Part shown: piece by piece, positions 11,510 to 54,419 of the stretch | Position numbering within the stretch: position 1 is the stretch's first letter | Layout: every line of letters begins with the position of its first letter | Origin: Mnemiopsis leidyi | Taxonomy: Eukaryota | DNA length: 64,000 nucleotides | Reading direction: 5' to 3' | Assembly (NCBI GenBank): GCA_048537945.1 | Contig: CM108484.1 | Coordinates: forward strand, 9,059,785 to 9,123,784 | The notes under the pieces: generated by a model | What the model saw: the letters and a program-made list of their open reading frames with translations, nothing else | Databases searched by the model: none | Told to the model about the DNA's origin: nothing | Translations under genes and position numbers: made by a program

Positions 11510-11644
11510 CTAATTTTCGGTACTGTTAGACTTGTTTGAGTCAGGATTTCCGACTAAGCCTTGAGCCGTTTTAAAAAGGTTTAGAGGTGTTGATCCGTCT
11601 GTTATGAGAGTAGACTTGAGCCCTAATGCCTCCAGCATCTTGAC
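11510..11644 (-). CDS. MVP: MVP terminal exon ([44 protein letters not shown] stop)
   Basis: Matches [35 protein letters not shown]. Acceptor TTTATCAG. Stop codon TAG on the - strand (plus coordinates 11510-11512). Confidence 0.8.
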
Positions 11645-14600
11645 CTGATAAAATCATTATTAAAATATTTCTGCAGGGAAGACTATTTTCTATCAATAAC
11701 TCGGGGTTTTATTTATTTGTCTAAAATTAAATAGAAGTCTTGAAGTGCGACTTACCCTTAACCTTAACATTAACAGCGCATACCTGGTTGCTATGTCCCG
11801 ATGTGGCAATAGCAGCAATATTTTCTGGTCCAAGATCCCCCACCATAGCTTTGAACTTGTCCGCCTCTATTTTCACCATTTTCCTCCGCTTTGTCACTTC
11901 AAGTTCGTTACAAGCTCGCAGGTAGTCCAACTCGCTTTTGCGGGCCGAAGAAATGCGTTCCAACTCCCCACGCTAAAAAATTGGGCGTAAATCAACAGAA
12001 ACTCGGCACTTTATCATTGATCCCAGGCCCGAATCGATAAATTAAAAAGTTCCATGGAGATTACTGCGAAGAACCTCAACAAAAACTCAAACTCAGTACT
12101 CACGGCGTTTATGTTCTCTGCTTCTGCAGCCAGTTTTGCCTGATCGACGGCTGCTTCCCCTTCAATTTTCATAGACTCAGCCCGAGACTGTGCCTCTGCT
12201 CTCGACTGCCCTGTGCTCTCGACGGCAGCTGAGCTGTCATAATACGGCTGATTAAATGACATAAATAAAGCAGCAATCTGCATTTCAATGTAAGAAATTC
12301 GTTGTGATTGAATTTAAATTTTAAGTTTTGAGCTTGTCTCTAAAATGTGACTGTAAATGGCCTGAAAGAACCGTAAGTTTGGGATTTTTATTTGAAATTG
12401 AACTTAGAAGAACACTGCGAAAACTCACACGGCTTGTAACTCTAAAAGTTCTTTTCTGGCCCTCTCCGCTTCTGCTTCATCGTTGAGTATCTGTCTCTCA
12501 AGTTTTCCTCGAGCCTCTTGGTCCAACCGCTCAGCTTCGTGTCTGAATCAAGAAAATTTCATAAATTCTTCAATTAAAATGCCTCAGCACAGTAAAATCC
12601 TAGAAAAAATGTGCAACCTTAGTTAGAGGTTAAAGGAAAAAAGATTTACCTAGCGGTTGCCTCCTGAGAGTTGGTAGTGATCTCAATAGCCAGCTGTACC
12701 GATTTCTGGAGGGAGTCTCTAGTTCTCTGATCGACTGGCTCGACAGACTGTATGTCTATATTAGATATTCTAAGTCGATTAGCTGGGAAGTATAGTGAGT
12801 CTTTGTCGCCCAGGATCGCTTGGTTTATTATTCTCACTGAGTGCTGAAAGTAATACTAGTAAGTTACCTCCAATCTTTTGTTCACAAATGACGTCATCAT
12901 TCTTACCCCTCCCCCTTTTTGCTTGTTCATCATTCGTCATCATGGCTAAACTCCTCCATGATGAACTTATCCCAGTCAGAACCCCCCCCCCTCCCTGCTT
13001 GAGGCTAAATAGCAAAATCTTTTATCATTTTGATCTTGTTCAAATGAGACAATTTTGCCATATAATTAGACTTCTACTTTCTCAAGTTAAAGTATGTACA
13101 GCATGAGCATTTCAATAACCTTGTGAAAGTCATCAAAAGGCACTGCTGCCACGGCTCCTCTTATTCTTGAAGCAATTGATTTGCAAGCGTCCCCGACAAA
13201 ATCTGGCACAGAAAACAGAGACTCGGAATCGCGCTTGTAAGTCGGCGAATCTTTCTTTGGCGTATCAAACTGCCTGCAGTTGTTAGGGAAATAGAAGATG
13301 ATTCATGAAACACTGGAGAAAATCGGGCTAATTATAGGTATCTCTCATAAGAGGGTTATCGCTAATAAATTGGCGCTAGGACTGGGAGTGAAACTTGACA
13401 GTTCGAGTAATGATTTGGTGTTTCCAGCAAACCATAGGTAGGTTCCTATTTAAATCAAATTCAAAATTGCTCATTTTTGCTTCGAGTCTTTCACTTACCA
13501 ATTGTAACAAAGCTGTAAAGAAAGCCTGGCATGGTCAGAAGTTTCCACCGTAAAAACATCCGTCATAAAATCAGGTCCAAGGGAGAGATCCAGAGTTCTG
13601 ATGACATTGGGTCGTTTAGGCTGGCCTCCAGAGAGACTAAGTTGGGTAAAGTGCTCGTCTGGGCCTAGCATGACCAAGTCTGGTCCGAATATTACCCTGA
13701 AATTGTTGGCTTGAGCTTCTGAAACACCTCAGTTATATTTGCAGACCAGAGTGTGGCTGCAGCTTTGCGGCAGCAGGCCTGACAACGTCAGGCAAGATTA
13801 GAATTGCTACGAAGAGTGAAGACATGAAGATGACCTCTCTCCTAGCTCTGGGTCATCCGTTTCTCATGTCTTCTTTGGTGTTCCATCCCCGTCCACTGTC
13901 GTTAACCCTTTAATCAGCTCTGAGCTCTTCTCTGACCTCCGTCATGCAATGCAAATTTAATATTTATCCCAAGGGTGGAACTGGAATAAATTAATTGCGC
14001 GCGCGTTGCGTAACGTACGTAACGTAAAAACATTAGTCGCGCGACAAAAACCACTAAAAAGACAAAAGGATTAGCGTGTTCCACAAAACACTCTAACAGT
14101 GTGTTAGTCCAGTAGGCCTTTCGGCAAAGTGGTACCATTTGAAAAGACCTAAATTGGCCATTTCAAGAAAAAACATAAAATTTTCAACACTAAATTGGAG
14201 GTGTTCCGCCCGTACGATTTTCTTCAAACTTTCAGAGCATGTTCCTTTTGACCAACACTACAAGATAGCGTCGGGAAAAGAGGGGGTTTATGAGTAAGTT
14301 TTCGAAATACAACTTCAAACACAAGGAAATATCTGATAATAAAAAAGCCCAATTCAGAGGTGTTCCGACCGTGCGATTTTCTTTAAAATTTTACAGTATG
14401 TTCCTCTTGATCTAAACTATCAGAAAACGTAAAAAAATTTGAGGGTCTATGTGTTAGTTTTCGAGATACAACCTTAAACACAGGGAAAAATCTAGAAATA
14501 AGTAAGCTGACCATGGAACAAGCCGATTTTGGAGGTGTTCCGACCGTACGATTGTCTTTCAAATTTCACAGTATGTTCCTTTTGATCTAAACTATTAGAA

Positions 14601-17600
14601 AATGTAAAAAAATTGGGGGGTCTATGTGTTAGCTTTCGAGATACATCTCTAAACACAAGGAAATATCTCAAAATAAATAGGCTGAGAATGAAACAAACAA
14701 ATTATGAAGGTGTTCCAACAGTACGATATTCTTCAAAAATTTCACAGAATGTTCATTTTTTACTAATTTTAATAGTTTTACAATTTAAAGTAATGTTAAT
14801 TTTATACTTATCAGTCGCAAAACGTAAAGCGTGCCTCCAGCCAGAAAAGACACGTGGTTTTCAGATTTCTAGTAATTTTAGGCTGACAATTTTAATTTTT
14901 CGGCTATAGGTGTGATGATTTTACGAAATTATCAAATTCGGATTCCTCGTCAAATTTTACGTCAAAATGCTGGTTTACCTTTTCTCCAGGCTCTAAGTCG
15001 AAAATTTCCATTTTGGGGCCCTATAGGGGTAACTTAAGGGGTCACGTGATGTTTTTGGATTTAAAACTATCAAATTCGGATTCGTCGTCAAATTTTACGT
15101 CAAACTACCGGTCTAACTTTTTTCCTAGCTCAAAGTTGAAAATATCCATTCTGAGGCCTTATAAGGGGTCACTAAACGGTCCACGTGATCATTTTTCGGC
15201 TCCGAAACTATCAAATTCGGCTTCCGCTGGTCTAACTTTTCTTTAAGTTCAAAGTTGAAAATTTTCATTTTTAGGGCCTTAAACTCTTTAAAGGCCCTTA
15301 AAGCTTAAAAGGCCTTCAGATCAACTTTTCACATAGCCTAAGCCACAGAACCCGCTAAAATCTACAATAAAATCTACCTGAAATTTTCATGACTCTGTCT
15401 TTTTCGTTTGGACTTCAATTCGTACCCCAATTTGGAGACTTTTTGGGCCTTTAAAGGCCCTAAGAGGGGTCGGAGCGAATTTTAACATGGCAAAAGTCAC
15501 AGAACGTGATGAAATCTACCTTATCTGAAACTTTCAAGTCTCTATCTCTTACCGTTTGGGCTCCAATTCGTTTGGGGGAAGGAGGAAAGGGAGAGGGGGG
15601 TGGTCAAGGGTCGTATACCACAATTCACGTTGTCATATTAGGGGGGTGGCAACGTTTTTTTTAAAACCCGGGCTACAATTGGACGAGAAATCAATTAGGA
15701 ATAGCCTCGAGGTTCAAACATTTTAGGTTAAACCTCGACACGGAATCATTTTTCCTCAATTTTTTAAAATTTTATAGAATAAACGAAAAGTTTCTGTATT
15801 TCAAGAATAACTTGGAACACACTAAGAAAATCGTAAGGTCGGAACACTTCCAAAAAGGCCTGGTACCATGGTCAGCGTACATATTATGAAATATTTTCTT
15901 GTGTTTGAAGTTGTATCTCCGAAACTAACACATAGACCCCCAAATTTTTTCGACGTAATCTTGTAGTTTGAATAGTAAGGAACATACTGTGAAGGTTTAA
16001 AGAACAATCCTATAGTCGGAACACCTCGAAAAGGCCTGGTACCATGGCCGGCGTACATATTTTGAGATATTTCCTTGTGTTTGAAGTTGTATCTCCGAAA
16101 CTAACACATAGACCCCCAAATTTTTTTACTTTTTCTGATAGTTTAGATCAAAAGGAAGATACTGTGAAATTTTAAAGAAAATCGCACGGTCGGAACACCT
16201 CCAAAAATGCCTAGTACCATGGTCAGCGTACATATTATGAGATATTTCCTTGTGTTTGAAGTTGTATCTCCGAAACTAACACATAGACCCCCAAACTTTT
16301 TTACTTTTTCTGATAGTTTAGATCAAAAGGAAGATACTGTGAAATTTTAAAGAAAATCGCACGGTCGGAACACCTCCAAAAATGCCTAGTACCATGGTCA
16401 GCGTACATATTATGAGATATTTCCTTGTGTTTGAAGTTGTATCTCCGAAACTAACACATAGACCCCCAAATTTTTTTACTTTTTCTGATAGTTAAGATCA
16501 AAAGGAAGATACTGTGAAATCTTAAAGAAAATCGCACGGTCGGAACACCTCCAAAAATGCCTAGTACCATGGTCAGCGTACATATTATGTGATATTTCCT
16601 TGTGTTTGAAGTTGTATCTCCGAAACTAACACATAGACCCCCAAATTTTTTTACTTTTTCTGATAGTTTAGATCAAAAGGAAGATACTGTGAAATCTTAA
16701 AGAAAATCGCACGGTCGGAACACCTCCAAAAATGCCTAGTACCATGGTCAGCGTACATATTATGTGATATTTCCTTGTGTTTGAAGTTGTATCTCCGAAA
16801 CTAACACATAGACCCCCAAATTTTTTTACTTTTTCTGATAGTTTAGATCAAAAGGAAGATACTATGAAATTTTAAAGAAAATCGCACGGTCGGAACACCT
16901 CCAAAAAGACCCGGTACCAAAATTTCGGCAAATTGGTACCATGGTACCAGAAAGTCCAACTCCGTGGTTATAATAATATCGCGACAACTAACACATAGAC
17001 CTCAACTTTTTTCGACGTAATCTTGTAGTTTGAATAGTAAGGAACATACTGTGAAGGTTTAAAGAACAATCCTATAGTCGGAACACCTCGAAAAGGCCTG
17101 GTACCATGGCCGGCGTACATATTTTGAGATATTTCCTTGTGTTTGAAGTTGTATCTCCGAAACTAACACATAGACCCCCAAATTTTTTTACTTTTTCTGA
17201 TAGTTTAGATCAAAAGGAAGATACTGTGAAATTTTAAAGAAAATCGCACGGTCGGAACACCTCCAAAAATGCCTAGTACCATGGTCAGCGTACATATTAT
17301 GAGATATTTCCTTGTGTTTGAAGTTGTATCTCCGAAACTAACACATAGACCCCCAAACTTTTTTACTTTTTCTGATAGTTTAGATCAAAAGGAAGATACT
17401 GTGAAATTTTAAAGAAAATCGCACGGTCGGAACACCTCCAAAAATGCCTAGTACCATGGTCAGCGTACATATTATGAGATATTTCCTTGTGTTTGAAGTT
17501 GTATCTCCGAAACTAACACATAGACCCCCAAATTTTTTTACTTTTTCTGATAGTTAAGATCAAAAGGAAGATACTGTGAAATCTTAAAGAAAATCGCACG

Positions 17601-20600
17601 GTCGGAACACCTCCAAAAATGCCTAGTACCATGGTCAGCGTACATATTATGTGATATTTCCTTGTGTTTGAAGTTGTATCTCCGAAACTAACACATAGAC
17701 CCCCAAATTTTTTTACTTTTTCTGATAGTTTAGATCAAAAGGAAGATACTGTGAAATCTTAAAGAAAATCGCACGGTCGGAACACCTCCAAAAATGCCTA
17801 GTACCATGGTCAGCGTACATATTATGTGATATTTCCTTGTGTTTGAAGTTGTATCTCCGAAACTAACACATAGACCCCCAAATTATTTTACTTTTTCTGA
17901 TAGTTTAGATCAAAAGGAAGATACTGTGAAATTTTAAAGAAAATCGCACGGTCGGAACACCTCCAAAAAGACCCGGTACCAAAATTTCGGCAAATTGGTA
18001 CCATGGTACCAGAAAGTCCAACTCCGTGGTTATAATAATATCGCGACAACTAACACATAGACCTCAACTTTTTTCGACGTAATCTTGTAGTTTGAATAGT
18101 AAGGAACATACTGTGAAGGTTTAAAGAACAATCCTATGGTCGGAACACCTCGAAAAGGCCTGGTACCATGGCCGGCGTACATATTTTGAGATATTTCCTT
18201 GTGTTTGAAGTTGTATCTCCGAAACTAACACATAGACCCCCAAATTTTTTTACTTTTTCTGATAGTTTAGATCAAAAGGAAGATACTGTGAAATTTTAAA
18301 GAAAATCGCACGGTCGGAACACCTCCAAAAATGCCTAGTACCATGGTCAGCGTACATATTATGAGATATTTCCTTGTGTTTGAAGTTGTATCTCCGAAAC
18401 TAACACATAGACCCCCAATTTTTTTTACTTTTTCTGATAGTTTAGATCAAAAGGAAGATACTGTGAAATCTTAAAGAAAATCGCACGGTCGGAACACCTC
18501 CAAAAATGCCTAGTACCATGGTCAGCGTACATATTATGTGATATTTCCTTGTGTTTGAAGTTGTATCTCCGAAACTAACACATAGACCCCCAAATTTTTT
18601 TACTTTTTCTGATAGTTTAGATCAAAAGGAAGATACTATGAAATTTTAAAAGAAAATCGCACGGTCGGAACACCTCCAAAAAGACCCGGTACCAAAATTT
18701 CGGCAAATTGGTACCATGGTACCAGAAAGTCCAACTCTGTTAGTCAGAAGGCCTTTCGGCAAAGTTGTTCCAATGAATGCCCTTAAATTTGCCGTTGCAA
18801 TGGAAAACATAGAATTTTAAACTCAAAATTGGAAGTGTTCCGACCGTACGATTTTCTTGAAAATTTCACAGTATGTTCCTATTGACCTAAATTAAAAGAT
18901 AACGTGGAGAAAATAGGGGGTCTAAGAGTCAGTTTTCGAGATACAACTTCAAACACAAGGAAATATCTTACCATAGAACAAGCCCATTTTGGAGGTGTTC
19001 CGACCGTACGATTTTCTTTAAAATTTCACAGAATGTTCCTTTTGATCTAAACTATCAGAAAATGTAAAAAAATTTGGGGGTCTATGTGTTAGTTTTCGAG
19101 ATACAACCTCAAACACAAGGAAATATCTCGAAATATGTACTCTGACCATGGAACAAGGCCTTTTTGGAGGTGTTCCCACCGTGCGATTTTCTTTAAACTT
19201 TCACAGTATGTTTCTATTGATCTAAACTATCAGAAAATGTAAAAAAATTTGGGGGTCTATGTGTTAGTTTTCGAGATACAACCTCAAACACAAGGAAATA
19301 TCTCGAAATAAGTACGCTGACCATAAAACAAGCCGATTTTGGAGGTGTTCCGACCGTACGATTTTCTTTAAACTTTCACAGTATGTTTCTTTTGATCTAA
19401 ACTATCAGAAAACGCAAAAAAGTTGGGGGGTCTATGTGTTAGTTTTCGAGATACAACCTCAAACACAAGGAAATATCTCGAAATAAGTACGCTGACCATG
19501 GAACAAGCCTATTTTGGAGGTGTTCCGACCGTACGATTTTTTTAAAACTTTCACAGTATGTTTCTTTTGATCTAAACTATCAGAAAATGTAAAAAAATTT
19601 GGGGGTCTACGTGTTAGTTTTCGAGATACAACCTCAAACACAAGGAAATATCTCGAAATATGTACTCTGACCATGGAACAAGGCCTTTTTGGAGGTGTTC
19701 CCACCGTGCGATTTTCTTTAAACTTTCACAGTATGTTTCTATTGATCTAAACTATAAGAAAATGTAAAATAATTTGGGGGTCTATGTGTTAGTTTTCGAG
19801 ATAAAACCTCAAACACAAGGAAATATCTCGAAATAAGTACGCTGACCATAAAACAAGCCGATTTTGGAGGTGTTCCGACCGTACGATTTTCTTTAAACTT
19901 TCACAGTATGTTCTTTTTGATCTAAACTATCAGAAAACGCAAAAAAGTTGGGGGGTCTATCTGTTAGTTTTCGAGATACAACCTCAAACACAAGGAAATA
20001 TCTCGAAATAAGTACGCTGACCATGGAATAAGCCTATTTTGGAGGTGTTCCGACCGTACGATTTTCTTTAAACTTTAACAGTATGTTCCTTTTAATCTAA
20101 ACTATCAGAAAATGTAAAAAAATTTGGGGGTCTATGTGTTAGTTTTCGAAAAACAACTTCAAACACAAGGAAATATCTCTAAATAAGTACGCTGACCATG
20201 GATCAAGCCGATTTTGGAGGTGTTTCGACCGTATGATTTTCTTTAAACTTTCACAGTATGTTCCTTTTGATCTAAACTATCAGAAAATGTAAAAAAATTT
20301 GGGGGTCTATGAGTTAGTTTTCGAGATACAACTTCAAACACAAGGAAATATCTCGAATTAAGTACACTGACCATGGAACAAGCCGATTTCGGAGGTGTTC
20401 CGGCCGTACGATTTTCTTTAAAATTTTACAGTATGTTTCTTTTGATCTAAATTATCAGAAAACGTAACAAAAAGTGGGGGTCTATGTGTAAGTTTTCGAG
20501 ATACAACTTAAAACACAAGGATATATCTCTTAATAAGTATGCTGTCCATGGAACAAGCCCATTTTGGAGGTGAGAAAAGTGGGGGTCTATATTTACGCTT

Positions 20601-23600
20601 TCGAGATATTATTCATCTCATAAGATAATTGGCGATCTTTTTTATGTAAAACCGTGTTGAATACAAGGTGTCTTCGAATCACTTCACCTTCCTTTTTAAG
20701 GCAGGTTCAGTCAGTCCACTTTGGTGGGTTAGTATTAGACATCAAGAGAGAGTCTCCAGTCAACTCTCTGTCAGTCAACTTTGTCAACCCATCAGATCCC
20801 CTCATTTAACCTGCTCGAAGTCCAACCTGCAGACCCTGGGGCCTGACACAGCCCTGGGTAACGAACAGTTGACACATAAATTTTGGTCAATCACAATTCA
20901 TATGCACCCACTCACGTCACCACCTTTAACCGCAGCTATTTGTCTTCTAGATGCTCATATTATAAGTGTATGAATCATAACCCCCCGCCGCTAGTCGTCT
21001 TCTAGCCACTCATGAGTGTATGAATTACAAACCTCTAACACGGACAGTGGAACATTAGACAAAACCAGCCAAGGGGAACTGGTAAAAGCTATGTCAGAAA
21101 TGTGCCTTTAACTAAACGCCACATACCAAATACAACCATGGAAATGCCAAAAAATGCCAAAACTTAACAGTAACAGTTAAAACCACGTCCCGGACCAAGG
21201 CATCAAACACTCGGTCCCCAAAGAACAATATGCACGATTAAGCCACGAGGGTCACCTAGCAGGACCGTTAGCAAAAAGCAGTGGTAGTCCCTCGCAGAAA
21301 CCACCTCACCATTCCGGAAGGGCGTTTCGACGCTTGACTCCTAACGGGTTCACTATGGCAATGACAGAGGTCCTTCAGGACATCCTCGATCCACCGGGCC
21401 TTAACATTTTGTTATGTCCTTTGGAAGTACCAGCCTAGCGAACCCCCAGCCAGCTGGGCTTTTGGTACACTCCTGCAATCCAAAGGAACCCCTAGAAACG
21501 TTAGCCACAAGGCGGACGTAGCCTTCTTGTTAATTCAGGAAGGCAATGTGGGTGCCCACTGAGTAATTTAAAAAGAAAAAAGTCCACTTTCTCATTTTGG
21601 TCATTTTATGTACATGTTACTGCCCTCTGAGGTACGTGTTACTGTCCTTTCAAGTACGTGTTACCGTTCTTACAGTAACGTGTTACTGTCCTCTCAGGTG
21701 CGTGTTACTGTCCTCTCAGGTACGTGTTACTGCCCTCTCAGATACGTGTTGCTTTTCTTTCAATAACGTGTTACCGTCCTCCGAGTATGCGTTACCTTTC
21801 AGATACGTTTTAAATCGAAAATGAGGATAAATATAGATATCACCGCAGCCTTGCGGGCGGTATTGGTTAAAACCACAAGGAACATTCTGAGAAAGTGTAA
21901 AGGAAATTGTACAATCGGAACACCTCCAAAAAGGCCTTGTTCCATGGTCAGAGTACATGTATTTCGAGAAATTTCCTTGTGTTTGAGGTTGTATCTCGAA
22001 AACTAACACATAGACCCCCCAATTTTTTTACATTTTCTGATAGTTTAGATCAATAGGAACATACTGTGAAAGTTTAAAGAAAATCGCACGGTCGGAACAC
22101 CTCCAAAAAGGCCTTGTTCCATGGTCAGAGTACATATTTCGAGATATTTCCTTGTGTTTGAGGTTGTATCTCGAAAACTAAAACATAGACCCCCAATTTT
22201 TTTACATTTTCTGATAGTTTAGATCAAAAGGAACATACTGTGAAAGTTTAAAGAAAATCGCACGGTGGGAACACCTCCAAATAGGCCTTGTTCCATGGTC
22301 AGAGTACATATTTCGAGATATTTCCTTGTGTTTGAGGTTGTATCTCGAAAACTAACACATAGACCCCCCAATTTTTTTACATTTTCTGATAGTTTAGATC
22401 AAAAGGAACATACTGTGAAAGTTTAAAGAAAATCGCACGGTGGGAACACCTTCAAAAAGGCCTTGTTCCAAAATTTTGGCTATTTGGAACAATGGAACAA
22501 GAAAGTCCAACTCCGTGGTTTTTTAGCTATATCTCGAAAACTAAAAAATAGGCCCCCATTTTTTTCGACGAATTCTTGTAGTTCTGATCGATAGGAACAT
22601 TCTGAGAAAGTGTAAAGGAAATTGTACAGTGGGAACAACTCCAAAAAGGCCTTGTTCCATGGTCAGAGTACATATTTCGAGATATTTCGTTGTGTTTGAG
22701 GTTGTATCTCGAAAACTAACACATAGACCCCCAAATTTTTTTACATTTTCTGATAGTTTAGATCAATAGGAACATACTGTGAAAGTTTAAAGAAAATCGC
22801 ACGGTCGGAACACCTCCAAAAAGGCCTTGTTCCATGGTCAGAGTACATATTTCGAGATATTTCCTTGTGTTTGAGGTTGTATCTCGAAAACTAACACATA
22901 GACCCCCCAATTTTTTTACATTTTCTGATAGTTTAGATCAAAAGGAACATACTGTGAAAGTTTAAAGAAAATCGCACGGTGGGAACACCTTCAAAAAGGC
23001 CTTGTTCCAAAATTTTGGCTATTTGGAACAATGGAACAAGAAAGTCCAACTCCGTGGTTTTTTAGCTATATCTCGAAAACTAAAAAATAGGCCCCCATTT
23101 TTTTCGACGAATTCTTGTAGTTCTGATCGATAGGAACATTCTGAGAAAGTGTAAAGGAAATTGTACAGTGGGAACAACTCCAAAAAGGCCTTGTTCCATG
23201 GTCAGATTACATATTTCGAGATATTTCGTTGTGTTTGAGGTTGTATCTCGAAAACTAACACATAGACCCCCAAATTTTTTTACATTTTCTGATAGTTTAG
23301 ATCAAAAGGAACATACTGTGAAAGTTTAAAGAAAATCGCACGGTGGGAACACCTCCAAATAGGCCTTGTTCCATGGTCAGAGTACATATTTCGAGATATT
23401 TCCTTGTGTTTGAGGTTGTATCTCGAAAACTAACACATAGACCCCCCAATTTTTTTACATTTTCTGATAGTTTAGATCAAAAGGAACATACTGTGAAAGT
23501 TTAAAGAAAATCGCACGGTGGGAACACCTTCAAAAAGGCCTTGTTCCAAAATTTTGGCTATTTGGAACAATGGAACAAGAAAGTCAAACTCCGTGGTTTT

Positions 23601-35600: not shown

Positions 35601-38600
35601 AATGGAACAAGAAAGTCCAACTCCGTGGTTTTTTAGCTATATCTCGAAAACTAAAAAATAGGCCCCCATTTTTTTCGACGAATTCTTGTAGTTTTGATCG
35701 ATAGGAACATTCTGAGAAAGTGTAAAGGAAATTGTACAGTGGGAACACCTCCAAAAAGGCCTTGTTCCATGGTCAGAGTACATATTTCGAGATATTTCCT
35801 TGTGTTTGAGGTTGTATCTCGAAAACTAACACATAGACCCCCAAATTTTTTTACATTTTCTGATAGTTTAGATCAAAAGAAACATACTGTGAAAGTTTAA
35901 AGAAAATCGCACGGTGGGAACACCTTCAAAAAGGCCCTGTTCTATGGTCAGAGTACATATTTCGAGATATTTCCTTGTGTTTGAGGTTGTATCTCGAAAA
36001 CTAACACATAGACCCCCCAATATTTTTACATTTTCTGATAGTTTAGATCAAAAGGAACATACTGTGAAAGTTTAAAGAAAATCGCACGGTGGGAACACCT
36101 TCAATAAGGCCTTGTTCCAAAATTTTGGCAATTTGGAACAATGGAACAAGAAAGTCCAACTCCGTGGTTTTTTAGCTATATCTCGAAAACTAAAAAATAG
36201 GCCCCCATTTTTTTCGACGAATTCTTGTAGTTTTGATCGATAGGAACATTCTGAGAAAGTGTAAAGGAAATTGTACAGTGGGAACACCTCCAAAAAGGCC
36301 TTGTTCCATGGTCAGAGTACATATTTCGAGATATTTCCTTGTGTTTGAGGTTGTATCTCGAAAACTAACACATAGACCCCCAAATTTTTTTACATTTTCT
36401 GATAATTTAGATCGAAAGGAACATACTGTGAAAGTTTAAAGAAAATCGCACGGTGGGAACACCTCCAAAAAGGCCTTGTTCCATGGTCAGAGTACATATT
36501 TCGAGATATTTCCTTGTGTTTGAGGTTGTATCTCGAAAACTAACACATAGACCCCCAAATGTTTTTACATTTTCTGATAGTTTAGATCAAAAGAAACATA
36601 CTGTGAAAGTTTAAAGAAAATCGCACGGTGGGAACACCTCCAAAAAGGCCTTGTTCCATGGTCAGAGTACATATTTCGAGATATTTCCTTGTGTTTGAGG
36701 TTGTATCTCGAAAACTAACACATAGACCCCCAAATTTTTTTACATTTTCTGATAGTTTAGATCAAAAGGAACATACTGTGAAAGTTTAAAGAAAATCGCA
36801 CGGTGGGAACACCTTCAAAAAGGCCCTGTTCTATGGTCAGAGTACATATTTCGAGATATTTCCTTGTGTTTGAGGTTGTATCTCGAAAACTAACACATAG
36901 ACCCCCAAATTTTTTTACATTTTCTGATAGTTTAGATCAAAAGGAACATACTGTGAAAGTTTAAAGAAAATCGCACGGTGGGAACACCTTCAAAAAGGCC
37001 TTGTTCCAAAATTTTGGCAATTTGGAACAATGGAACAAGAAAGTCCAACTCCGTGGTTTTTTAGCTATATCTCGAAAACTAAAAAATAGGCCCCCATTTT
37101 TTTCGACGAATTCTTGTAGTTTTGATCGATAGGAACATTCTGAGAAAGTGTAAAGGAAATTGTACAGTGGGAACACCTCCAAAAAGGCCTTGTTCCATGG
37201 TCAGAGTACATATTTCGAGATATTTCCTTGTGTTTGAGGTTGTATCTCGAAAACTAACACATAGACCCCCAAATTTTTTTACATTTTCTGATAGTTTAGA
37301 TCAAAAGAAACATACTGTGAAAGTTTAAAGAAAATCGCACGGTGGGAACACCTTCAAAAAGGCCCTGTTCTATGGTCAGAGTACATATTTCGAGATATTT
37401 CCTTGTGTTTGAGGTTGTATCTCGAAAACTAACACATAGACCCCCAAATTTTTTTACATTTTCTGATAGTTTAGATCAAAAGGAACATACTGTGAAAGTT
37501 TAAAGAAAATCGCACGGTGGGAACACCTTCAATAAGGCCTTGTTCCAAAATTTTGGCAATTTGGAACAATGGAACAAGAAAGTCCAACTCCGTGGTTTTT
37601 TAGCTATATCTCGAAAACTAAAAAATAGGCCCCCATTTTTTTCGACGAATTCTTGTAGTTTTGATCGATAGGAACATTCTGAGAAAGTGTAAAGGAAATT
37701 GTACAGTGGGAACACCTCCAAAAAGGCCTTGTTCCATGGTCAGAGTACATATTTCGAGATATTTCCTTGTGTTTGAGGTTGTATCTCGAAAACTAACACA
37801 TAGACCCCCAAATTTTTTTACATTTTCTGATAATTTAGATCGAAAGGAACATACTGTGAAAGTTTAAAGAAAATCGCACGGTGGGAACACCTCCAAAAAG
37901 GCCTTGTTCCATGGTCAGAGTACATATTTCGAGATATTTCCTTGTGTTTGAGGTTGTATCTCGAAAACTAACACATAGACCCCCAAATGTTTTTACATTT
38001 TCTGATAGTTTAGATCAAAAGAAACATACTGTGAAAGTTTAAAGAAAATCGCACGGTGGGAACACCTCCAAAAAGGCCTTGTTCCATGGTCAGAGTACAT
38101 ATTTCGAGATATTTCCTTGTGTTTGAGGTTGTATCTCGAAAACTAACACATAGACCCCCAAATTTTTTTACATTTTCTGATAGTTTAGATCAATAGAAAC
38201 ATACTGTGAAAGTTTAAAGAAAATCGCACGGTGGGAACACCTTCAAAAAGGCCCTGTTCTATGGTCAGAGTACATATTTCGAGATATTTCCTTGTGTTTG
38301 AGGTTGTATCTCGAAAACTAACACATAGACCCCCAAATTTTTTTACATTTTCTGATAGTTTAGATCAAATGGAACATACTGTGAAAGTTTAAAGAAAATC
38401 GCACGGTGGGAACATCTTCAAAAAGGCCTTGTTCCAAAATTTTGGCAATTTGGAACAATGGAACAAGAAAGTCCAACTCCGTGGTTTTTTAGCTATATCT
38501 CGAAAACTAAAAAATAGGCCCCCATTTTTTTCGACGAATTCTTGTAGTTTTGATCGATAGGAACATTCTGAGAAAGTGTAAAGGAAATTGTACAGTGGGA

Positions 38601-41600
38601 ACACCTCCAAAAAGGCCTTGTTCCATGGTCAGAGTACATATTTCGAGATATTTCCTTGTGTTTGAGGTTGTATCTCGAAAACTAACACATAGACCCCCAA
38701 ATTTTTTTACATTTTCTGATAGTTTAGATCAAAAGGAACATACTGTGAAAGTTTAAAGAAAATCGCACGGTGGGAACACCTTCAAAAAGGCCCTGTTCTA
38801 TGGTCAGAGTACATATTTCGAGATATTTCCTTGTGTTTGAGGTTGTATCTCGAAAACTAACAAATAGACCCCCAAATTTTTTTACATTTTCTGATAGTTT
38901 AGATCAAAAGGAACATACTGTGAAAGTTTAAAGAAAATCGCACGGTGGGAACACCTTCAAAAAGGCCTTGTTCCAAAATTTTGGCAATTTGGAACAATGG
39001 AACAAGAAAGTCCAACTCCGTGGTTTTTTAGCTATATCTCGAAAACTAAAAAATAGGCCCCCATTTTTTTCGACGAATTCTTGTAGTTTTGATCGATAGG
39101 AACATTCTGAGAAAGTGTAAAGGAAATTGTACAGTGGGAACACCTCCAAAAAGGCCTTGTTCCATGGTCAGAGTACATATTTCGAGATATTTCCTTGTGT
39201 TTGAGGTTGTATCTCGAAAACTAACACATAGACCCCCAAATTTTTTTACATTTTCTGATAGTTTAGATCAAAAGAAACATACTGTGAAAGTTTAAAGAAA
39301 ATCGCACGGTGGGAACACCTTCAAAAAGGCCCTGTTCTATGGTCAGAGTACATATTTCGAGATATTTCCTTGTGTTTGAGGTTGTATCTCGAAAACTAAC
39401 ACATAGACCCCCCAATATTTTTACATTTTCTGATAGTTTAGATCAAAAGGAACATACTGTGAAAGTTTAAAGAAAATCGCACGGTGGGAACACCTTCAAT
39501 AAGGCCTTGTTCCAAAATTTTGGCAATTTGGAACAATGGAACAAGAAAGTCCAACTCCGTGGTTTTTTAGCTATATCTCGAAAACTAAAAAATAGGCCCC
39601 CATTTTTTTCGACGAATTCTTGTAGTTTTGATCGATAGGAACATTCTGAGAAAGTGTAAAGGAAATTGTACAGTGGGAACACCTCCAAAAAGGCCTTGTT
39701 CCATGGTCAGAGTACATATTTCGAGATATTTCCTTGTGTTTGAGGTTGTATCTCGAAAACTAACACATAGACCCCCAAATTTTTTTACATTTTCTGATAG
39801 TTTAGATCAAAAGGAACATACTGTGAAAGTTTAAAGAAAATCGCACGGTGGGAACACCTTCAAAAAGGCCCTGTTCTATGGTCAGAGTACATATTTCGAG
39901 ATATTTCCTTGTGTTTGAGGTTGTATCTCGAAAACTAACAAATAGACCCCCAAATTTTTTTACATTTTCTGATAGTTTAGATCAAAAGGAACATACTGTG
40001 AAAGTTTAAAGAAAATCGCACGGTGGGAACACCTTCAAAAAGGCCTTGTTCCAAAATTTTGGCAATTTGGAACAATGGAACAAGAAAGTCCAACTCCGTG
40101 GTTTTTTAGCTATATCTCGAAAACTAAAAAATAGGCCCCCATTTTTTTCGACGAATTCTTGTAGTTTTGATCGATAGGAACATTCTGAGAAAGTGTAAAG
40201 GAAATTGTACAGTGGGAACACCTCCAAAAAGGCCTTGTTCCATGGTCAGAGTACATATTTCGAGATATTTCCTTGTGTTTGAGGTTGTATCTCGAAAACT
40301 AACACATAGACCCCAAAATTTTTTTACATTTTCTGATAGTTTAGATCAAAAGAAACATACTGTGAAAGTTTAAAGAAAATCGCACGGTGGGAACACCTTC
40401 AAAAAGGCCCTGTTCTATGGTCAGAGTACATATTTCGAGATATTTCCTTGTGTTTGAGGTTGTATCTCGAAAACTAACACATAGACCCCCCAATATTTTT
40501 ACATTTTCTGATAGTTTAGATCAAAAGGAACATACTGTGAAAGTTTAAAGAAAATCGCACGGTGGGAACACCTTCAATAAGGCCTTGTTCCAAAATTTTG
40601 GCAATTTGGAACAATGGAACAAGAAAGTCCAACTCCGTGGTTTTTTAGCTATATCTCGAAAACTAAAAAATAGGCCCCCATTTTTTTCGACGAATTCTTG
40701 TAGTTTTGATCGATAGGAACATTCTGAGAAAGTGTAAAGGAAATTGTACAGTGGGAACACCTCCAAAAAGGCCTTGTTCCATGGTCAGAGTACATATTTC
40801 GAGATATTTCCTTGTGTTTGAGGTTGTATCTCGAAAACTAACACATAGACCCCCAAATGTTTTTACATTTTCTGATAGTTTAGATCAAAAGAAACATACT
40901 GTGAAAGTTTAAAGAAAATCGCACGGTGGGAACACCTCCAAAAAGGCCTTGTTCCATGGTCAGAGTACATATTTCGAGATATTTCCTTGTGTTTGAGGTT
41001 GTATCTCGAAAACTAACACATAGACCCCCAAATTTTTTTACATTTTCTGATAGTTTAGATCAAAACAAACATACTGTGAAAGTTTAAAGAAAATCGCACG
41101 GTGGGAACACCTTCAAAAAGGCCCTGTTCTATGGTCAGAGTACATATTTCGAGATATTTCCTTGTGTTTGAGGTTGTATCTCGAAAACTAACACATAGAC
41201 CCCCCAATATTTTTACATTTTCTGATAGTTTAGATCAAAAGGAACATACTGTGAAAGTTTAAAGAAAATCGCACGGTGGGAACACCTTCAATAAGGCCTT
41301 GTTCCAAAATTTTGGCAATTTGGAACAATGGAACAAGAAAGTCCAACTCCGTGGTTTTTTAGCTATATCTCGAAAACTAAAAAATAGGCCCCCATTTTTT
41401 TCGACGAATTCTTGTAGTTTTGATCGATAGGAACATTCTGAGAAAGTGTAAAGGGAATTGTACAGTGGGAACACCTCCAAAAAGGCCTTGTTCCATGGTC
41501 AGAGTACATATTTCGAGATATTTCCTTGTGTTTGAGGTTGTATCTCGAAAACTAACACATAGACCCCCAAATTTTTTTACATTTTCTGATAATTTAGATC

Positions 41601-44600
41601 GAAAGGAACATACTGTGAAAGTTTAAAGAAAATCGCACGGTGGGAACACCTCCAAAAAGGCCTTGTTCCATGGTCAGAGTACATATTTCGAGATATTTCC
41701 TTGTGTTTGAGGTTGTATCTCGAAAACTAACACATAGACCCCCAAATGTTTTTACATTTTCTGATAGTTTAGATCAAAAGAAACATACTGTGAAAGTTTA
41801 AAGAAAATCGCACGGTGGGAACACCTCCAAAAAGGCCTTGTTCCATGGTCAGAGTACATATTTCGAGATATTTCCTTGTGTTTGAGGTTGTATCTCGAAA
41901 ACTAACACATAGACCCCCAAATTTTTTTACATTTTCTGATAGTTTAGATCAAAAGGAACATACTGTGAAAGTTTAAAGAAAATCGCACGGTGGGAACACC
42001 TTCAAAAAGGCCCTGTTCTATGGTCAGAGTACATATTTCGAGATATTTCCTTGTGTTTGAGGTTGTATCTCGAAAACTAACACATAGACCCCCAAATTTT
42101 TTTACATTTTCTGATAGTTTAGATCAAAAGGAACATACTGTGAAAGTTTAAAGAAAATCGCACGGTGGGAACACCTTCAAAAAGGCCTTGTTCCAAAATT
42201 TTGGCAATTTGGAACAATGGAACAAGAAAGTCCAACTCCGTGGTTTTTTAGCTATATCTCGAAAACTAAAAAATAGGCCCCCATTTTTTTCGACGAATTC
42301 TTGTAGTTTTGATCGATAGGAACATTCTGAGAAAGTGTAAAGGAAGTTGTACAGTGGGAACACCTCCAAAAAGGCCTTGTTCCATGGTCAGAGTACATAT
42401 TTCGAGATATTTCCTTGTGTTTGAGGTTGTATCTCGAAAACTAACACATAGACCCCCAAATTTTTTTACATTTTCTGATAGTTTAGATCAAAAGAAACAT
42501 ACTGTGAAAGTTTAAAGAAAATCGCACGGTGGGAACACCTTCAAAAAGGCCCTGTTCTATGGTCAGAGTACATATTTCGAGATATTTCCTTGTGTTTGAG
42601 GTTGTATCTCGAAAACTAACACATAGACCCCCAAATTTTTTTACATTTTCTGATAGTTTAGATCAAAAGGAACATACTGTGAAAGTTTAAAGAAAATCGC
42701 ACGGTGGGAACACCTTCAATAAGGCCTTGTTCCAAAATTTTGGCAATTTGGAACAATGGAACAAGAAAGTCCAACTCCGTGGTTTTTTAGCTATATCTCG
42801 AAAACTAAAAAATAGGCCCCCATTTTTTTCGACGAATTCTTGTAGTTTTGATCGATAGGAACATTCTGAGAAAGTGTAAAGGAAATTGTACAGTGGGAAC
42901 ACCTCCAAAAAGGCCTTGTTCCATGGTCAGAGTACATATTTCGAGATATTTCCTTGTGTTTGAGGTTGTATCTCGAAAACTAACACATAGACCCCCAAAT
43001 TTTTTTACATTTTCTGATAATTTAGATCGAAAGGAACATACTGTGAAAGTTTAAAGAAAATCGCACGGTGGGAACACCTCCAAAAAGGCCTTGTTCCATG
43101 GTCAGAGTACATATTTCGAGATATTTCCTTGTGTTTGAGGTTGTATCTCGAAAACTAACACATAGACCCCCAAATGTTTTTACATTTTCTGATAGTTTAG
43201 ATCAAAAGAAACATACTGTGAAAGTTTAAAGAAAATCGCACGGTGGGAACACCTCCAAAAAGGCCTTGTTCCATGGTCAGAGTACATATTTCGAGATATT
43301 TCCTTGTGTTTGAGGTTGTATCTCGAAAACTAACACATAGACCCCCAAATTTTTTTACATTTTCTGATAGTTTAGATCAATAGAAACATACTGTGAAAGT
43401 TTAAAGAAAATCGCACGGTGGGAACACCTTCAAAAAGGCCCTGTTCTATGGTCAGAGTACATATTTCGAGATATTTCCTTGTGTTTGAGGTTGTATCTCG
43501 AAAACTAACACATAGACCCCCAAATTTTTTTACATTTTCTGATAGTTTAGATCAAATGGAACATACTGTGAAAGTTTAAAGAAAATCGCACGGTGGGAAC
43601 ATCTTCAAAAAGGCCTTGTTCCAAAATTTTGGCAATTTGGAACAATGGAACAAGAAAGTCCAACTCCGTGGTTTTTTAGCTATATCTCGAAAACTAAAAA
43701 ATAGGCCCCCATTTTTTTCGACGAATTCTTGTAGTTTTGATCGATAGGAACATTCTGAGAAAGTGTAAAGGAAATTGTACAGTGGGAACACCTCCAAAAA
43801 GGCCTTGTTCCATGGTCAGAGTACATATTTCGAGATATTTCCTTGTGTTTGAGGTTGTATCTCGAAAACTAACACATAGACCCCCAAATTTTTTTACATT
43901 TTCTGATAATTTAGATCGAAAGGAACATACTGTGAAAGTTTAAAGAAAATCGCACGGTGGGAACACCTCCAAAAAGGCCTTGTTCCATGGTCAGAGTACA
44001 TATTTCGAGATATTTCCTTGTGTTTGAGGTTGTATCTCGAAAACTAACACATAGACCCCCAAATTTTTTTACATTTTCTGATAGTTTAGATCAAAAGAAA
44101 CATACTGTGAAAGTTTAAAGAAAATCGCACGGTGGGAACACCTCCAAAAAGGCCTTGTTCCATGGTCAGAGTACATATTTCGAGATATTTCCTTGTGTTT
44201 GAGGTTGTATCTCGAAAACTAACACATAGACCCCCAAATTTTTTTACATTTTCTGATAGTTTAGATCAAAAGAAACATACTGTGAAAGTTTAAAGAAAAT
44301 CGCACGGTGGGAACACCTTCAAAAAGGCCCTGTTCTATGGTCAGAGTACATATTTCGAGATATTTCCTTGTGTTTGAGGTTGTATCTCGAAAACTAACAC
44401 ATAGACCCCCAAATTTTTTTACATTTTCTGATAGTTTAGATCAAATGGAACATACTGTGAAAGTTTAAAGAAAATCGCACGGTGGGAACATCTTCAAAAA
44501 GGCCTTGTTCCAAAATTTTGGCAATTTGGAACAATGGAACAAGAAAGTCCAACTCCGTGGTTTTTTAGCTATATCTCGAAAACTAAAAAATAGGCCCCCA

Positions 44601-47600
44601 TTTTTTTCGACGAATTCTTGTAGTTTTGATCGATAGGAACATTCTGAGAAAGTGTAAAGGAAATTGTACAGTGGGAACACCTCCAAAAAGGCCTTGTTCC
44701 ATGGTCAGAGTACATATTTCGAGATATTTCCTTGTGTTTGAGGTTGTATCTCGAAAACTAACACATAGACCCCCAAATTTTTTTACATTTTCTGATAATT
44801 TAGATCGAAAGGAACATACTGTGAAAGTTTAAAGAAAATCGCACGGTGGGAACACCTCCAAAAAGGCCTTGTTCCATGGTCAGAGTACATATTTCGAGAT
44901 ATTTCCTTGTGTTTGAGGTTGTATCTCGAAAACTAACACATAGACCCCCAAATTTTTTTACATTTTCTGATAGTTTAGATCAAAAGAAACATACTGTGAA
45001 AGTTTAAAGAAAATCGCACGGTGGGAACACCTCCAAAAAGGCCTTGTTCCATGGTCAGAGTACATATTTCGAGATATTTCCTTGTGTTTGAGGTTGTATC
45101 TCGAAAACTAACACATAGACCCCCAAATTTTTTTACATTTTCTGATAGTTTAGATCAAAAGGAACATACTGTGAAAGTTTAAAGAAAATCGCACGGTGGG
45201 AACACCTTCAAAAAGGCCCTGTTCTATGGTCAGAGTACATATTTCGAGATATTTCCTTGTGTTTGAGGTTGTATCTCGAAAACTAACACATAGACCCCCA
45301 AATTTTTTTACATTTTCTGATAGTTTAGATCAAAAGGAACATACTGTGAAAGTTTAAAGAAAATCGCACGGTGGGAACACCTTCAAAAAGGCCTTGTTCC
45401 AAAATTTTGGCAATTTGGAACAATGGAACAAGAAAGTCCAACTCGTGTTAGTTTGAAACATTGAAAACACAGTGAACACTCGATTTGCCTGCATGTTTCA
45501 AGTTGGGAGTCTCTGTCACTTCCAATATAGGGACTACCTCCCTCTGACTTCTGAGGCGTCGAGAATGAAAACAGCACCACAGTTTGAACATTCGCACCGA
45601 TTTTCAACTATTGCCAGGGGTGAAGGAATATGCTCAAAACTGGGGGAGGCACTTTCATCTGAAAATTTGCCTACAGTGCTATCTCGGCGGCACTTCGCAC
45701 CACCTCGCTCGCAAGTGCCTAATGTTAGCGTTTATTTGATCATCGTCATTAGAAACCCCCCTAATTGTGCGTTTTGATGGGTTCCGGGGGAAAAAAGTAA
45801 CTGAACCTCCAATGTTTATGAAGTATGAAATTGTAGTTTGAAATCTGTCGTACAGAATTGTTTGGGGTTCAAAATTTCCGACTAAGTGTGATTTTGAGAC
45901 TGTGGAGGACCATGATATCACATTGTACCTTCTGAAGAGCCCTGTAAACCCTGACCTGGGCCTCATAGTCCATATGTCTTTGTTGGTCGAACCTGTTGCT
46001 ATTGCTTAACTCCACCCCCTCTTCATATTGGTCTATATATGTCTTTGTTGGTCGAACCTGTTGCTATTGCTTAACTTCACCCCCTCTTCATTTTGGTCTA
46101 TATAGTCAGGCTGGCGAAATCATGATAGGGTATATGTCGGTTGTTGGGCTTAAGTTAGATCGAATGTCTTTGCCATTATTTAGCAATTCTGCTATCTTTC
46201 GCTATCTTTCCTCTTGATTAAAAAGTGCTAAATTTTAAAAACCCCTTGATGAATGTTTTTGCGTTCAACTAATGACGATTATGAACTGAATTCTAAATCT
46301 CGGACCCGGAATACAGGTACCAACACCACATTAAAATCTCAGATGCAGTCTCACATGAGAAAATTCATTATATATAACATAAACTAAACCAATTTCATCA
46401 CCCGCAGAGAAACTGGATTAATACAATAGTGTACTCCTTGAATGTAGGATGTACATAATATCATTGCTTCCTCTACATACCCTGTTGTCATTGACTACAC
46501 TACACAAACATGCACGCACCATGATTGCTGTTAACATTTAAATTTAAAAAGTCGCCATTGATAAAGGCGGGGAAAAGAGGCAACGTACAAATAATGGAAA
46601 AATATTGCATTCACTAAAACAAGATCTCAGCAAACCAACCTGGAAACTTTTGTCTTGTAATCGAAGACCTGAACTGCTGAGTTGTGGGGGACCTGATAAG
46701 TAATGACTTTTTTCTTGTCTCTCGGTTTTGTTGCTACTTCTTTATTCTGTTTGTCACCCCTGAGCTTCTCCCGTCCAACTAGAGGATTCAGAGCCTCGGC
46801 TAATAGTTTTTCTATTATCTCAGGAAGCTCTTTAGAATACAACTCTTCATCTTGATTATAGATGTAAGTTTCTCCAATCACTGCTCGAACCTGTAAATTT
46901 TTAGAATTATTTGTTATCCCATTTTGCAGAAAATCAACATTACATCATACAATTAGTATAGTGGTACAGTATACAAAATTGTTTACAAAATAGTAAACAA
47001 TAGTATACAATAGTATACAATGGCATACAATAGTATTCAAAACAGTATATAAAAAATTATACTAAATAGCTCAAAGAAAAGGAGACAAGAAAAAATCCAT
47101 GCTCCTGAAGCTTATTTTTTAAACAAACCTTTCCCGTCTTGACATTTCTAACGTAAACACCCTCGTTGGCGTCCAAGGGTATTGCCTTTCTCTTGGAAAC
47201 AACTTCCATTTCAACAGTTGGACAAAATTCTCGGGGTCCTTTCAGCATCCATTTGTCCCCTGGATTTCTTTGTACCCCCTGAAGAAAAATCTTATTGATT
47301 TGTACCTCTAGAAAACATGGATTTATTGTATCGTGTTGGTGGTTTTTCATTAGGTTTTTAAAAACGTCAAAAGTTAAAGAAAATATAGACAAAACTCCCA
47401 AACAAACTTCGTAACTTTGAAAATCAATAAAAAAAGAACTGCCGCTTTTCTCACGTTATCTGTAAAAGGGAGAATGGCCCTCAGAACGACAGCTTCATCC
47501 TCCAACAGAATACAAACGTCCTGAACCTCTCCATTCTCCAGTGTCTCGCCCGGGTGGAGGAAAAACTCTTTTTCGCCCTGTCATTATAATTAATGGACAT

Positions 47601-52493: not shown

Positions 52494-52834
52494 TCTTTCT
52501 GCAAAGATTATGTATTATCTGTGTTAAAGCTTAACAAAATTAGCAATATGAGAACATACCTGAAAATAATTAGGGTGGTGGCAACCACCCCCAAATTTTA
52601 ATGGGAGTTCAAAAAAAGGTGCCATCCCCCCTAGTATGACAACAGGAAGTGTGGTATACGACCCCCCCTGACTTCCTGACCAATCCCGACCCCCCACTGA
52701 CGCTTTTTTGCAAACAAATTGGAGCCCAAAAGGTAAGAGATAGAGACTCGAAAATTTCAGATAAGGTAGATTTCATTACGTTCTACGGCTTTGGCTATGT
52801 TACAATTAGCTCCAACCCCTCTAAGGAACCTTTA

Positions 52835-53470
52835 AGGCCTTAAAAGCCGATATATCCGAATTTGATAGTTTTGAATCCATAAAACGAGCAAGTGACCCCT
52901 TAAGTGAACCCTTATAGGGCCCAAAAATAGAAATTTTCAACTTTAAGCAAGGAGAAAAAATAGACCAGTATTTTGACATAAAATTTGATAAGGAATCCGA
53001 ATTTGATAGTTTTGAATGTGAAAAATGGTCACGTGACCCGTTAAGTGAGCCCTTATAAGGCCTCAAAATGGAAATTTTTAACTATGGCCTAGGGGAAAAG
53101 TTAAACCAGTAAAATTTGATGAGGAATCTAAATGTGAAGGTTTTGAATCCGAAAAATCATCATGTGCCCCCATAAGTGACCCCCTATAGCCAAAAATTGA
53201 AAATTTTTAACTTTGTTGTAGATGAAAAGTTAGACTAGTATTTTCACATAAAATTCGACAAGGAATCCAAATTAAAAGTTTGAAGTCAAAAAATATCACA
53301 TGACCTGCTGAGTATTTTTTGTATTTGTTTTTTGTTACAAAAATTTTGAATTTTTGGCTATAGGGGGTCACTTATGGGGCCACATGATGATTTTTCGGAA
53401 TCAAAACCTTCACATTTAGATTCCTCGTCAAATTTTACTGGTTTAACTTTTCCCCTAGGCCATAGTTGAA
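52835..53470 (+). repeat. Satellite family B, block 3, upstream of the MVP start; the last ~130 bp (53335-53470) is inverted relative to 53085-53200
   Basis: Same monomer family. 53340-53465 is the exact reverse complement of 53085-53200, giving a local inverted duplication. The flanking segment 52560-52830 is the reverse complement of 15290-15560. Confidence 0.8.
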
Positions 53471-54181: not shown

Positions 54182-54189
54182 TTTTCTTG

Positions 54190-54415: not shown

Positions 54416-54419
54416 TTCT

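Follow-up and report, generated by a model that had tools for sequence, protein, structure and literature searches.

A higher-order-repeat satellite makes up most of a 33-kb intron of an MVP gene in the ctenophore Mnemiopsis leidyi

In a 64,000-nucleotide stretch of Mnemiopsis leidyi DNA (assembly GCA_048537945.1, contig CM108484.1, positions 9,059,785 to 9,123,784; hereafter the window, with positions counted from its first letter), we found that intron 9 of a gene for the vault protein MVP consists for 88.5% of its length of a tandemly repeated satellite, here called family A, which contributes 29,155 bp (terminal extensions included) in 163 monomers. The gene around the array is intact, the intron lies at a position common to the orthologue of the ctenophore Bolinopsis microptera, whose own locus is free of satellite, and selection has acted on both halves of the coding region; these features, like the anatomy of the array itself, were observed directly. 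We consider it probable that the array reflects a recent and passive satellite expansion in a tolerant intron of an intact, selectively maintained MVP gene, and that it is transcribed and spliced out.

Results

An intact MVP gene spans the array

Upon searching the window by tblastn with a human MVP probe, we obtained 16 ordered minus-strand matches running from 52469 to 11549, with each exon represented once. The probe sequence served for probing only, and the resulting exon map was validated independently against MVP sequences in the PDB. Among solved structures, the 851-amino-acid (aa) model aligned with residues 6-851 of human MVP (E 2.9e-299) and with residues 5-851 of rat MVP (E about 1e-298). 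It combines vault repeats, a shoulder domain and a cap-helix region in one polypeptide within the ~850-900 aa range of the family, and its top database matches are named MVP orthologues.

The exons on either side of the array fit together without ambiguity. Joining the minus-strand translations of exons 9 and 10 yielded an in-frame peptide of 149 aa that aligned to residues 398-544 of the solved human MVP without a gap (E 4.9e-49) and that Pfam covered, in order, with Vault_4, Vault_3 and MVP_shoulder. When all GT..AG combinations in a margin of +/-60 nt around the tblastn matches of these two exons were tried, a single pair kept the frame, namely the donor GTTGGT after 46640 and the acceptor TTTCAG before 13696, in phase 2. 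A first-pass annotation of this DNA had identified these two exons, out of 16, by the same pair of splice sites and had described the intron between them as a single one of ~33 kb; both statements hold, as intron 9 measures 32,943 bp and the other 14 introns, in line with the lengths claimed for them, measure 101-2,457 bp. All 15 introns begin with GT and end with AG, the open reading frame (ORF) stays open throughout, and in contigs of related species the matching ends exactly at MVP exon edges. The donors of the 15 introns are mostly far from GTRAGT (GTTTTA, GTTCAA, GTACAT, GTTTTT, GTTTGT, GTTGGT, GTTATT and others), and since they are weak gene-wide, the weak donor GTTGGT of the giant intron is typical for the gene.

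In the B. microptera locus (L005), the exons follow one another as in the window, and the downstream neighbour is also the same, a convergent gene with an ArfGAP domain (L005 23942-27308). At the codon matching intron 9 (aa 482), the Bolinopsis MVP gene carries an intron of 7,465 bp (L005 9080-16544), the longest of that gene, so the position of intron 9 is common to the two orthologues. This Bolinopsis intron was found to be without satellite: the sole output of Tandem Repeats Finder (TRF) for it was a 31-bp match with two copies, and its sequence shows no similarity to family A. The absence of satellite from this locus, the one orthologous locus that was compared, thus indicates that the expansion is lineage-specific. 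The ArfGAP-domain gene of the window (about 7097-10422, plus strand) lies tail to tail with MVP, ~1 kb from the MVP stop codon; with a neighbour this near, the flanks of the gene are gene-dense, which argues against a heterochromatic block.

Family A and the make-up of intron 9

Family A is a long head-to-tail array of a monomer of more than 100 bp in tens to hundreds of copies, as befits a satellite. TRF reported four arrays with a 175-bp unit, the largest of them at 21877-45401 with 131 copies and a score of 29,462. Using one 175-bp monomer as a query, nhmmer located 163 copies, which fall into four blocks of alternating orientation within intron 9, and found none in the remainder of the 64-kb window. 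Calling a block '+' where the monomer reads GGAGGTGTTCCGACCG on the plus strand, the nhmmer extents are 14190-14760 for block 1 ('+', 4 copies), 15721-18691 for block 2 ('-', 17 copies), 18827-20543 for block 3 ('+', 10 copies) and 21862-45400 for block 4 ('-', 132 copies); the full extents of the blocks, with their leaders and extensions, are listed with the other features in Table 1.

Table 1. Features of the MVP gene and its intron 9, with the three monomer types of family A (window positions; lengths for the monomer types)
Feature	Position or length	Strand	Description	Basis
Complete MVP coding region	11510..52493	-	851 aa in 16 coding exons; from the ATG at 52493 to the end of the stop codon at 11510	tblastn exon map, splice-site search, full-length alignment, intron table
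MVP exon 9	46640..46890	-	acceptor TTACAG, donor GTTGGT	
Intron 9	13697..46639	-	32,943 bp, GT..AG, phase 2; 88.5% family A satellite	
MVP exon 10	13499..13696	-	acceptor TTTCAG, donor GTAAGT	
Satellite block 1	14102..14760	+	non-monomer leader of ~90-110 bp, then 4 diverged monomers	
Family B block	14803..15660	.	858-bp dispersed repeat with internal tandem units of ~140 bp; inverted relative to the other 3 window copies	
Satellite block 2	15721..18744	-	17 monomers; 1,062-bp hexamer higher-order repeat AAAABC; 49-bp B extension at end	
Head-to-head junction of blocks 2/3	18692..18826	.	midpoint of a long inverted repeat with 87-89% complementarity between arms of at most 891 nt	
Satellite block 3	18745..20625	+	leader, 10 monomers of 175 bp (~90% alike), degenerate partial monomer	
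Non-satellite spacer	20626..21861	.	carries 22-bp minisatellite; without protein-family match	
Satellite block 4, main array	21862..45452	-	132 monomers: about 55 A, 38 B and 38 C	
Non-satellite 5' part of intron 9	45453..46639	.	65-bp x 2 duplication and 104-bp Bolinopsis-like piece	
Monomer type A	175 bp		basic monomer	
Monomer type B	211 bp		A-like monomer with ~40-bp extension	
Monomer type C	153 bp		truncated, diverged monomer	

These results agree with much of what had been described for the intron beforehand, namely about 29 kb of family A in four alternating blocks (29.2 kb by our count), roughly 160 monomers in both orientations, a family B block (about 14803-15660) and a minisatellite (21610-21781), but the monomer length of 178 bp given there has to be revised to 175 bp. 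An apparent average of 178-180 bp results from the mixture of 175-bp A, 211-bp B and 153-bp C units in the main array. The minisatellite comprises 7.8 copies of a 22-bp unit by TRF, with diverged copies reaching to about 21800, and the 65-bp duplication near the 5' end of the intron was placed by TRF at 45972-46104. The rest of intron 9 is about 2.6 kb of unique sequence without recognisable coding content.

The window contains no N and no assembly gap. Pfam returned no family for ORFs in the non-satellite parts of intron 9 or in the Bolinopsis intron, no transposase was found, and intron 9 contains no ORF of at least 110 aa. Scans of the whole window with Rfam (at the gathering threshold) and for tRNAs were without a match, so the monomer does not visibly derive from a tRNA, a short interspersed nuclear element (SINE) or another known RNA. 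A relationship between families A and B was also considered and rejected, as their local alignments score no better than shuffles.

Higher-order repeats distinguish a young core from older layers

We found the main block to be organised in higher-order repeats, a structure that the first-pass annotation had overlooked. Its autocorrelation has its peak at 539 bp, with a value of 0.83 compared to 0.67 at 175 bp, and rises locally to 0.99-1.00, and the spacing of its monomer starts follows the series 175-211-153. The units of block 4 are ABC (539 bp), AABC (714 bp), AAABC (889 bp) and BC (364 bp), and the higher-order periodicities amount to 539, 714, 889 and 1,062 bp, the last of which belongs to the AAAABC unit of block 2. 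Within block 4, monomers of one type are 97.6% (A), 99.0% (B) and 99.2% (C) identical, whereas types A and C are 78% identical to each other; copies of the multimer are thus more alike than adjacent monomers, as is the case in a higher-order repeat. Blocks 1-3 show 79-90% identity within a block and 84-91% identity to type A of block 4. Block 4 is a young, homogenised core, and the layers beside it are older, diverged and in part inverted. An analysis of exact k-mers and their lags further showed that segments of 2.2-3.1 kb are duplicated within block 4 without a mismatch, with lags of 3059, 3234 and 6293 (the longest segment being 3,097 bp at lag 3,059), and identity at unit spacing attains 99-100% at 38.4-40.9 kb (539/1078 bp) and at 42.9-45.4 kb (889 bp).

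Such near-identity, together with the multi-kilobase exact repeats, is what one would also see if a satellite that is present in the genome had been distorted in size, copy number or orientation by collapse, over-expansion or fold-back chimeras during assembly, and head-to-head inverted blocks are a known signature of chimeric long reads. We nevertheless regard an artefact of this kind as unlikely. Blocks 2 and 3 are no mirror images of each other, as a 1,062-bp hexamer in the one faces a plain 175-bp repeat in the other at only 84-89% identity, and these differences in repeat structure and sequence argue against fold-back chimeras. The exact repeats, at up to 3.1 kb, are well inside long-read length in a window without gaps, every block is anchored by unique sequence, and the gene order, strand and phase match those of Bolinopsis. 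A misjoin of contigs would require the chance reunion of the two halves of one gene. These halves sit on either side of the array with the order, strand and phase that one gene requires, and the Bolinopsis intron position and the ArfGAP neighbour agree. It is therefore very unlikely that two contigs were joined in error, and an assembly error could touch only the copy number and the internal arrangement of the array.

Inverted blocks and their consequences for the pre-mRNA

The blocks share their ends. Both '-' blocks finish with one 49-bp extension followed by (G)TGTTAGT, and both '+' blocks open with a common non-monomer leader (87 bp at 78% identity by BLAST). Given these common ends, the blocks seem to be related by an inverted segmental duplication that took in an array edge. 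Terminal inverted repeats, target-site duplications and transposase remnants were not seen at the blocks. Tandem repeats carried by a transposon are neither supported nor excluded, as inverted segmental duplication explains the common ends equally well.

Since the blocks alternate in orientation, the pre-mRNA would be able to form very long hairpins. For a 990-nt sense RNA over the junction of blocks 2 and 3, where the inverted arms extend to at most 891 nt with 87-89% complementarity, we obtained a folding energy of -551 kcal/mol, compared to -223 +/- 6.5 kcal/mol for shuffles (z = -50.7). Hairpins as predicted here could supply substrates to small-RNA or editing pathways, or make the intron effectively shorter. 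The array might accordingly be functional in its own right, with pre-mRNA hairpins that supply small interfering RNA (siRNA) or RNA editing or that unite the splice sites, or with repressive chromatin that tunes MVP; block 1, which neighbours the 3' splice site, runs counter to block 4, whose end is no more than 1.2 kb from the 5' splice site, and pairing between the two could loop out ~30 kb. Yet hairpin potential follows automatically from inverted duplication, whatever its origin, and calls for no selection, the Bolinopsis orthologue manages without a satellite, and Rfam gives no family match, and we therefore hold a function of the array to be quite improbable.

On the sense strand, intron 9 as a whole contains one AATAAA and five ATTAAA polyadenylation hexamers, and the consensus sequences of A, B and C contain none. 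With so few of them, premature polyadenylation from canonical signals is not expected.

Both halves of MVP are under purifying selection

The database protein closest to the 851-aa MVP (P0121, 82% identical) clusters with B. microptera XP_063673840, and the next group, at 62-65% identity, includes KAL5258009 of Mnemiopsis leidyi. An identity matrix separated two ctenophore MVP clades. The window gene and XP_063673840, at 81% identity to each other, make up the more divergent clade, which is 61% identical to cnidarian and urchin MVP; to the other clade belongs KAL5258009, which is 65% identical to the window gene and 66% identical to cnidarian MVP. From these identities, the clade of the window gene appears to be the faster-evolving of the two.

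For the relative's orthologue, a full-length mRNA is known (L004) despite an intron of 7.5 kb. Comparing the window gene with this mRNA, we measured proportions of nonsynonymous (pN) and synonymous (pS) differences of 0.11 and 0.76, respectively; with a pS of 0.76, synonymous sites are saturated, and we hence give pN and pS in place of dN/dS. The values for exons 1-9 (pN/pS 0.111/0.754) and for exons 10-16 (0.113/0.776) are near-identical, indicating that both halves have been kept under purifying selection within a working gene.

This result bears on the notion that the window gene is an MVP paralogue in the course of being lost or split, which the satellite expansion would recently have disabled or left with exons 1-9 and exons 10-16 as separate transcription units, a loss made tolerable by a second, more conserved ctenophore MVP. 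The membership of the gene in the faster-evolving clade (61% identity to cnidarian and urchin MVP versus 66% for the other clade) would suit such a scenario, as would the absence of any transcript-derived protein of the source species from the collection searched, and the core of the array is young enough for an intact ORF to be compatible with a recent inactivation. However, the ORF is open along its whole length, 15 of 15 introns have canonical splice sites, purifying selection is equal in both halves, and the relative's orthologue is expressed as a full-length mRNA. The missing transcripts are explained equally well by the absence of the species from the database, where a 114-aa ORF spanning exon 8 is likewise without a record. 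Taken together, we give the loss or splitting of the gene only a slim chance. The description of MVP as constitutively expressed in the earlier annotation was nonetheless an assumption, seeing that the gene belongs to a divergent clade, that no transcript of the species was found and that the full-length mRNA is that of the relative's orthologue.

Family A beyond the window

A search with the translation of a 68-aa ORF from the array hit two database 'proteins', and family A was recovered from two contigs outside the window. One of them, AKGO01000053.1 (L006, 283 bp) from Staphylococcus epidermidis NIHLM057, holds 1.6 monomers with 93% identity to block 2 (window 16170-16445) and is annotated as hypothetical protein HMPREF9989_03434. 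Judged by this match, it is ctenophore DNA that contaminates a bacterial assembly; the National Institutes of Health (NIH) centre that sequenced S. epidermidis strains also sequenced Mnemiopsis leidyi. The other, metagenome contig k141_6166035 (L007, 504 bp; ENA ERZ27295583), is 98% identical over 420 bp to block 2 (window 17925-18343) and differs from the window in its monomer order, which is BC-BC instead of BC-A. As synonymous sites are saturated against the nearest relative in the database, both satellite contigs must belong to this species or to one very near to it. By their sequences, they must stem from other loci or other individuals, which suggests that family A is not confined to MVP intron 9. 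An exact-pattern scan of metagenome contigs of the Joint Genome Institute (JGI) returned only one chance match of 25 nt (L003). A full-text literature search with 20-22-mers of the monomer found no paper describing the satellite, and the literature on ctenophores and satellite DNA yielded incidental mentions only.

By analogy of architecture, the 175-bp array might be a centromere-type satellite, or the fragment or seed of one, inside a transcribed gene, as a homogenised multimer core with older, partly inverted flanking layers is the pattern of regional centromeres; we rate this as very improbable. Should family A prove to mark one locus per chromosome and to bind centromeric histone, it would be the first ctenophore centromere sequence, and one spanned by a gene.

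Other repeats in and around the gene

Family B occurs four times in the 64 kb, at 14803-15660, 47973-48424, 52611-53473 and 54419-54531. A distance of 118 bp separates the copy at 52611-53473 from the MVP start codon downstream of it, so that this copy falls in what is likely the promoter region, and one more copy is located within MVP intron 5. Two minisatellites of 9/18 bp, at 59436-59560 and 59706-59810 (ACAATGGCG and its reverse complement CCATTGTCG), form an inverted pair ~150 bp apart, the second of them overlapped by a low-complexity ORF of 120 aa (59616-59978). At 53957-54424, a 232-bp unit is present twice with 98% identity and has an 18-bp repeat embedded in it.

In the non-satellite 5' part of intron 9, a 104-bp piece (45936-46039; ORF 45869-46015, minus strand) resembles L005 13194-13297, which lies in an unannotated ORF of 188 aa in the Bolinopsis intron. 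The piece has the peptide motif DYEAxVxVYRAL...VLHSLK, is flipped in its orientation to MVP between the two species and has no Pfam match. It is probably a common mobile or gene-fragment remnant.

Discussion

What we infer from this anatomy is the sequence in which the events took place, how the array expanded, and that the source species transcribes the intron and splices it out. Intron 9 would already have been the longest and most insertion-tolerant intron of the gene in this lineage when it was colonised by a complex 175-bp satellite, which then expanded. The older, diverged blocks 1-3 would have arisen first and would have been rearranged by inverted segmental duplication, an array edge included. 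Block 4 may subsequently have been amplified and homogenised, by unequal exchange or by replication-based duplication, into a three-type higher-order repeat of 23.6 kb, and very recent duplications of several kilobases within block 4 would have followed. Having no role in the protein, the array would be transcribed along with the rest of the pre-mRNA, from which ordinary GT-AG splicing would excise it. This is feasible, as an intron of 33 kb is only moderately long and the sense strand of the satellite is almost devoid of canonical poly(A) hexamers; for RNA polymerase II, such a length is unremarkable.

Several points weigh against this interpretation. No protein in the database is more than 82% identical overall, 89% in exon 9 or 95% in exon 10, and no transcript of the species was matched, so that the junction of exons 9 and 10, as well as MVP expression in the source species, are predictions from the genomic sequence. 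The copy number of block 4 is uncertain, given the 99-100% identity at unit spacing. On the sense strand, each monomer brings one donor-like AGGTR and one pyrimidine-rich CAG, which makes for ~150 potential cryptic splice sites, with GGAG|GT as the candidate donor and CACAG|T as the candidate acceptor of each monomer, while the true MVP donors are weak, and cryptic splicing within the array is, going by these motifs, a risk. The scarcity of poly(A) hexamers, finally, is effectively a sample of one monomer and no evidence of selection.

A satellite-bearing intron is a known phenomenon, and family A represents no new kind of element; what is known about the vault protein and about the behaviour of satellite DNA is left unchanged by our finding. 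Its value lies in being a well-resolved case of a higher-order-repeat satellite that has grown inside an intron of a conserved and maintained gene, within a phylum for which hardly any satellite or centromere has been described. In the genome of the ctenophore Hormiphora, tandem repeats were reported to account for 13% of the sequence, and a centromeric repeat could not be identified (PMC8527503). The satellite-free 7.5-kb intron of Bolinopsis and intron 9 of the window gene constitute a before-and-after pair, on which the rate of array growth and its effects on transcription, splicing and chromatin can be followed. There is also a warning for annotation, as introns of this kind can split gene models, and family A already figures as a spurious 'protein' in a bacterial assembly. 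The significance of the array would rise sharply only if family A turned out to be a centromeric satellite or to give rise to functional small RNAs.

The first-pass annotation had left a choice between a heterochromatin-like setting and an assembly error. This is a false dichotomy, because intronic satellites of euchromatic genes are documented, among them TCAST of Tribolium (PMC3411249), human alpha satellite (PMC7348797, PMC7719264) and the 1.688 satellite of Drosophila (PMC7642928), which are present as repeats or arrays in introns, and on the Drosophila Y chromosome there are introns filled with satellite that undergo transcription (PMC6508621). For the euchromatic cases, single repeats or short arrays were described (PMC7348797), whereas the MVP array comprises 163 monomers over 29 kb, with a higher-order structure of its own and signs of recent homogenisation. 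What it has in common with the Tribolium, human and Drosophila 1.688 cases is a monomer in the ~170-360 bp range that resides in an ordinary gene intron, outside large heterochromatic blocks.

Satellite-rich introns on the Drosophila Y chromosome consist of simple 5-7-bp satellites in Y heterochromatin. Those of the fertility genes kl-3 and kl-5 are megabases long, contain transcribed satellite and depend on a dedicated spermatocyte programme (PMC6508621). As in kl-3 and kl-5, a conserved gene would be transcribed through an intron that is mostly satellite, and this satellite is restricted to a lineage and has no bearing on the protein. Unlike in these genes, the MVP intron is 33 kb long, its satellite is a complex 175-bp higher-order repeat, its surroundings are compact and gene-dense, and no special expression programme is needed; at 32,943 bp, it also falls short of the hundreds of kilobases to megabases that make an intron gigantic.

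In its architecture, the array resembles primate alpha satellite, with which it shares a monomer of ~171-175 bp, multimer copies that are 98-99% alike compared to 78% between types A and C, and a homogeneous core flanked by blocks that are older, diverged and in part inverted. In contrast to centromeric alpha satellite, the MVP core measures 24 kb and not megabases, and it lies inside an intron; the resemblance is one of architecture, with no sequence relationship in evidence.

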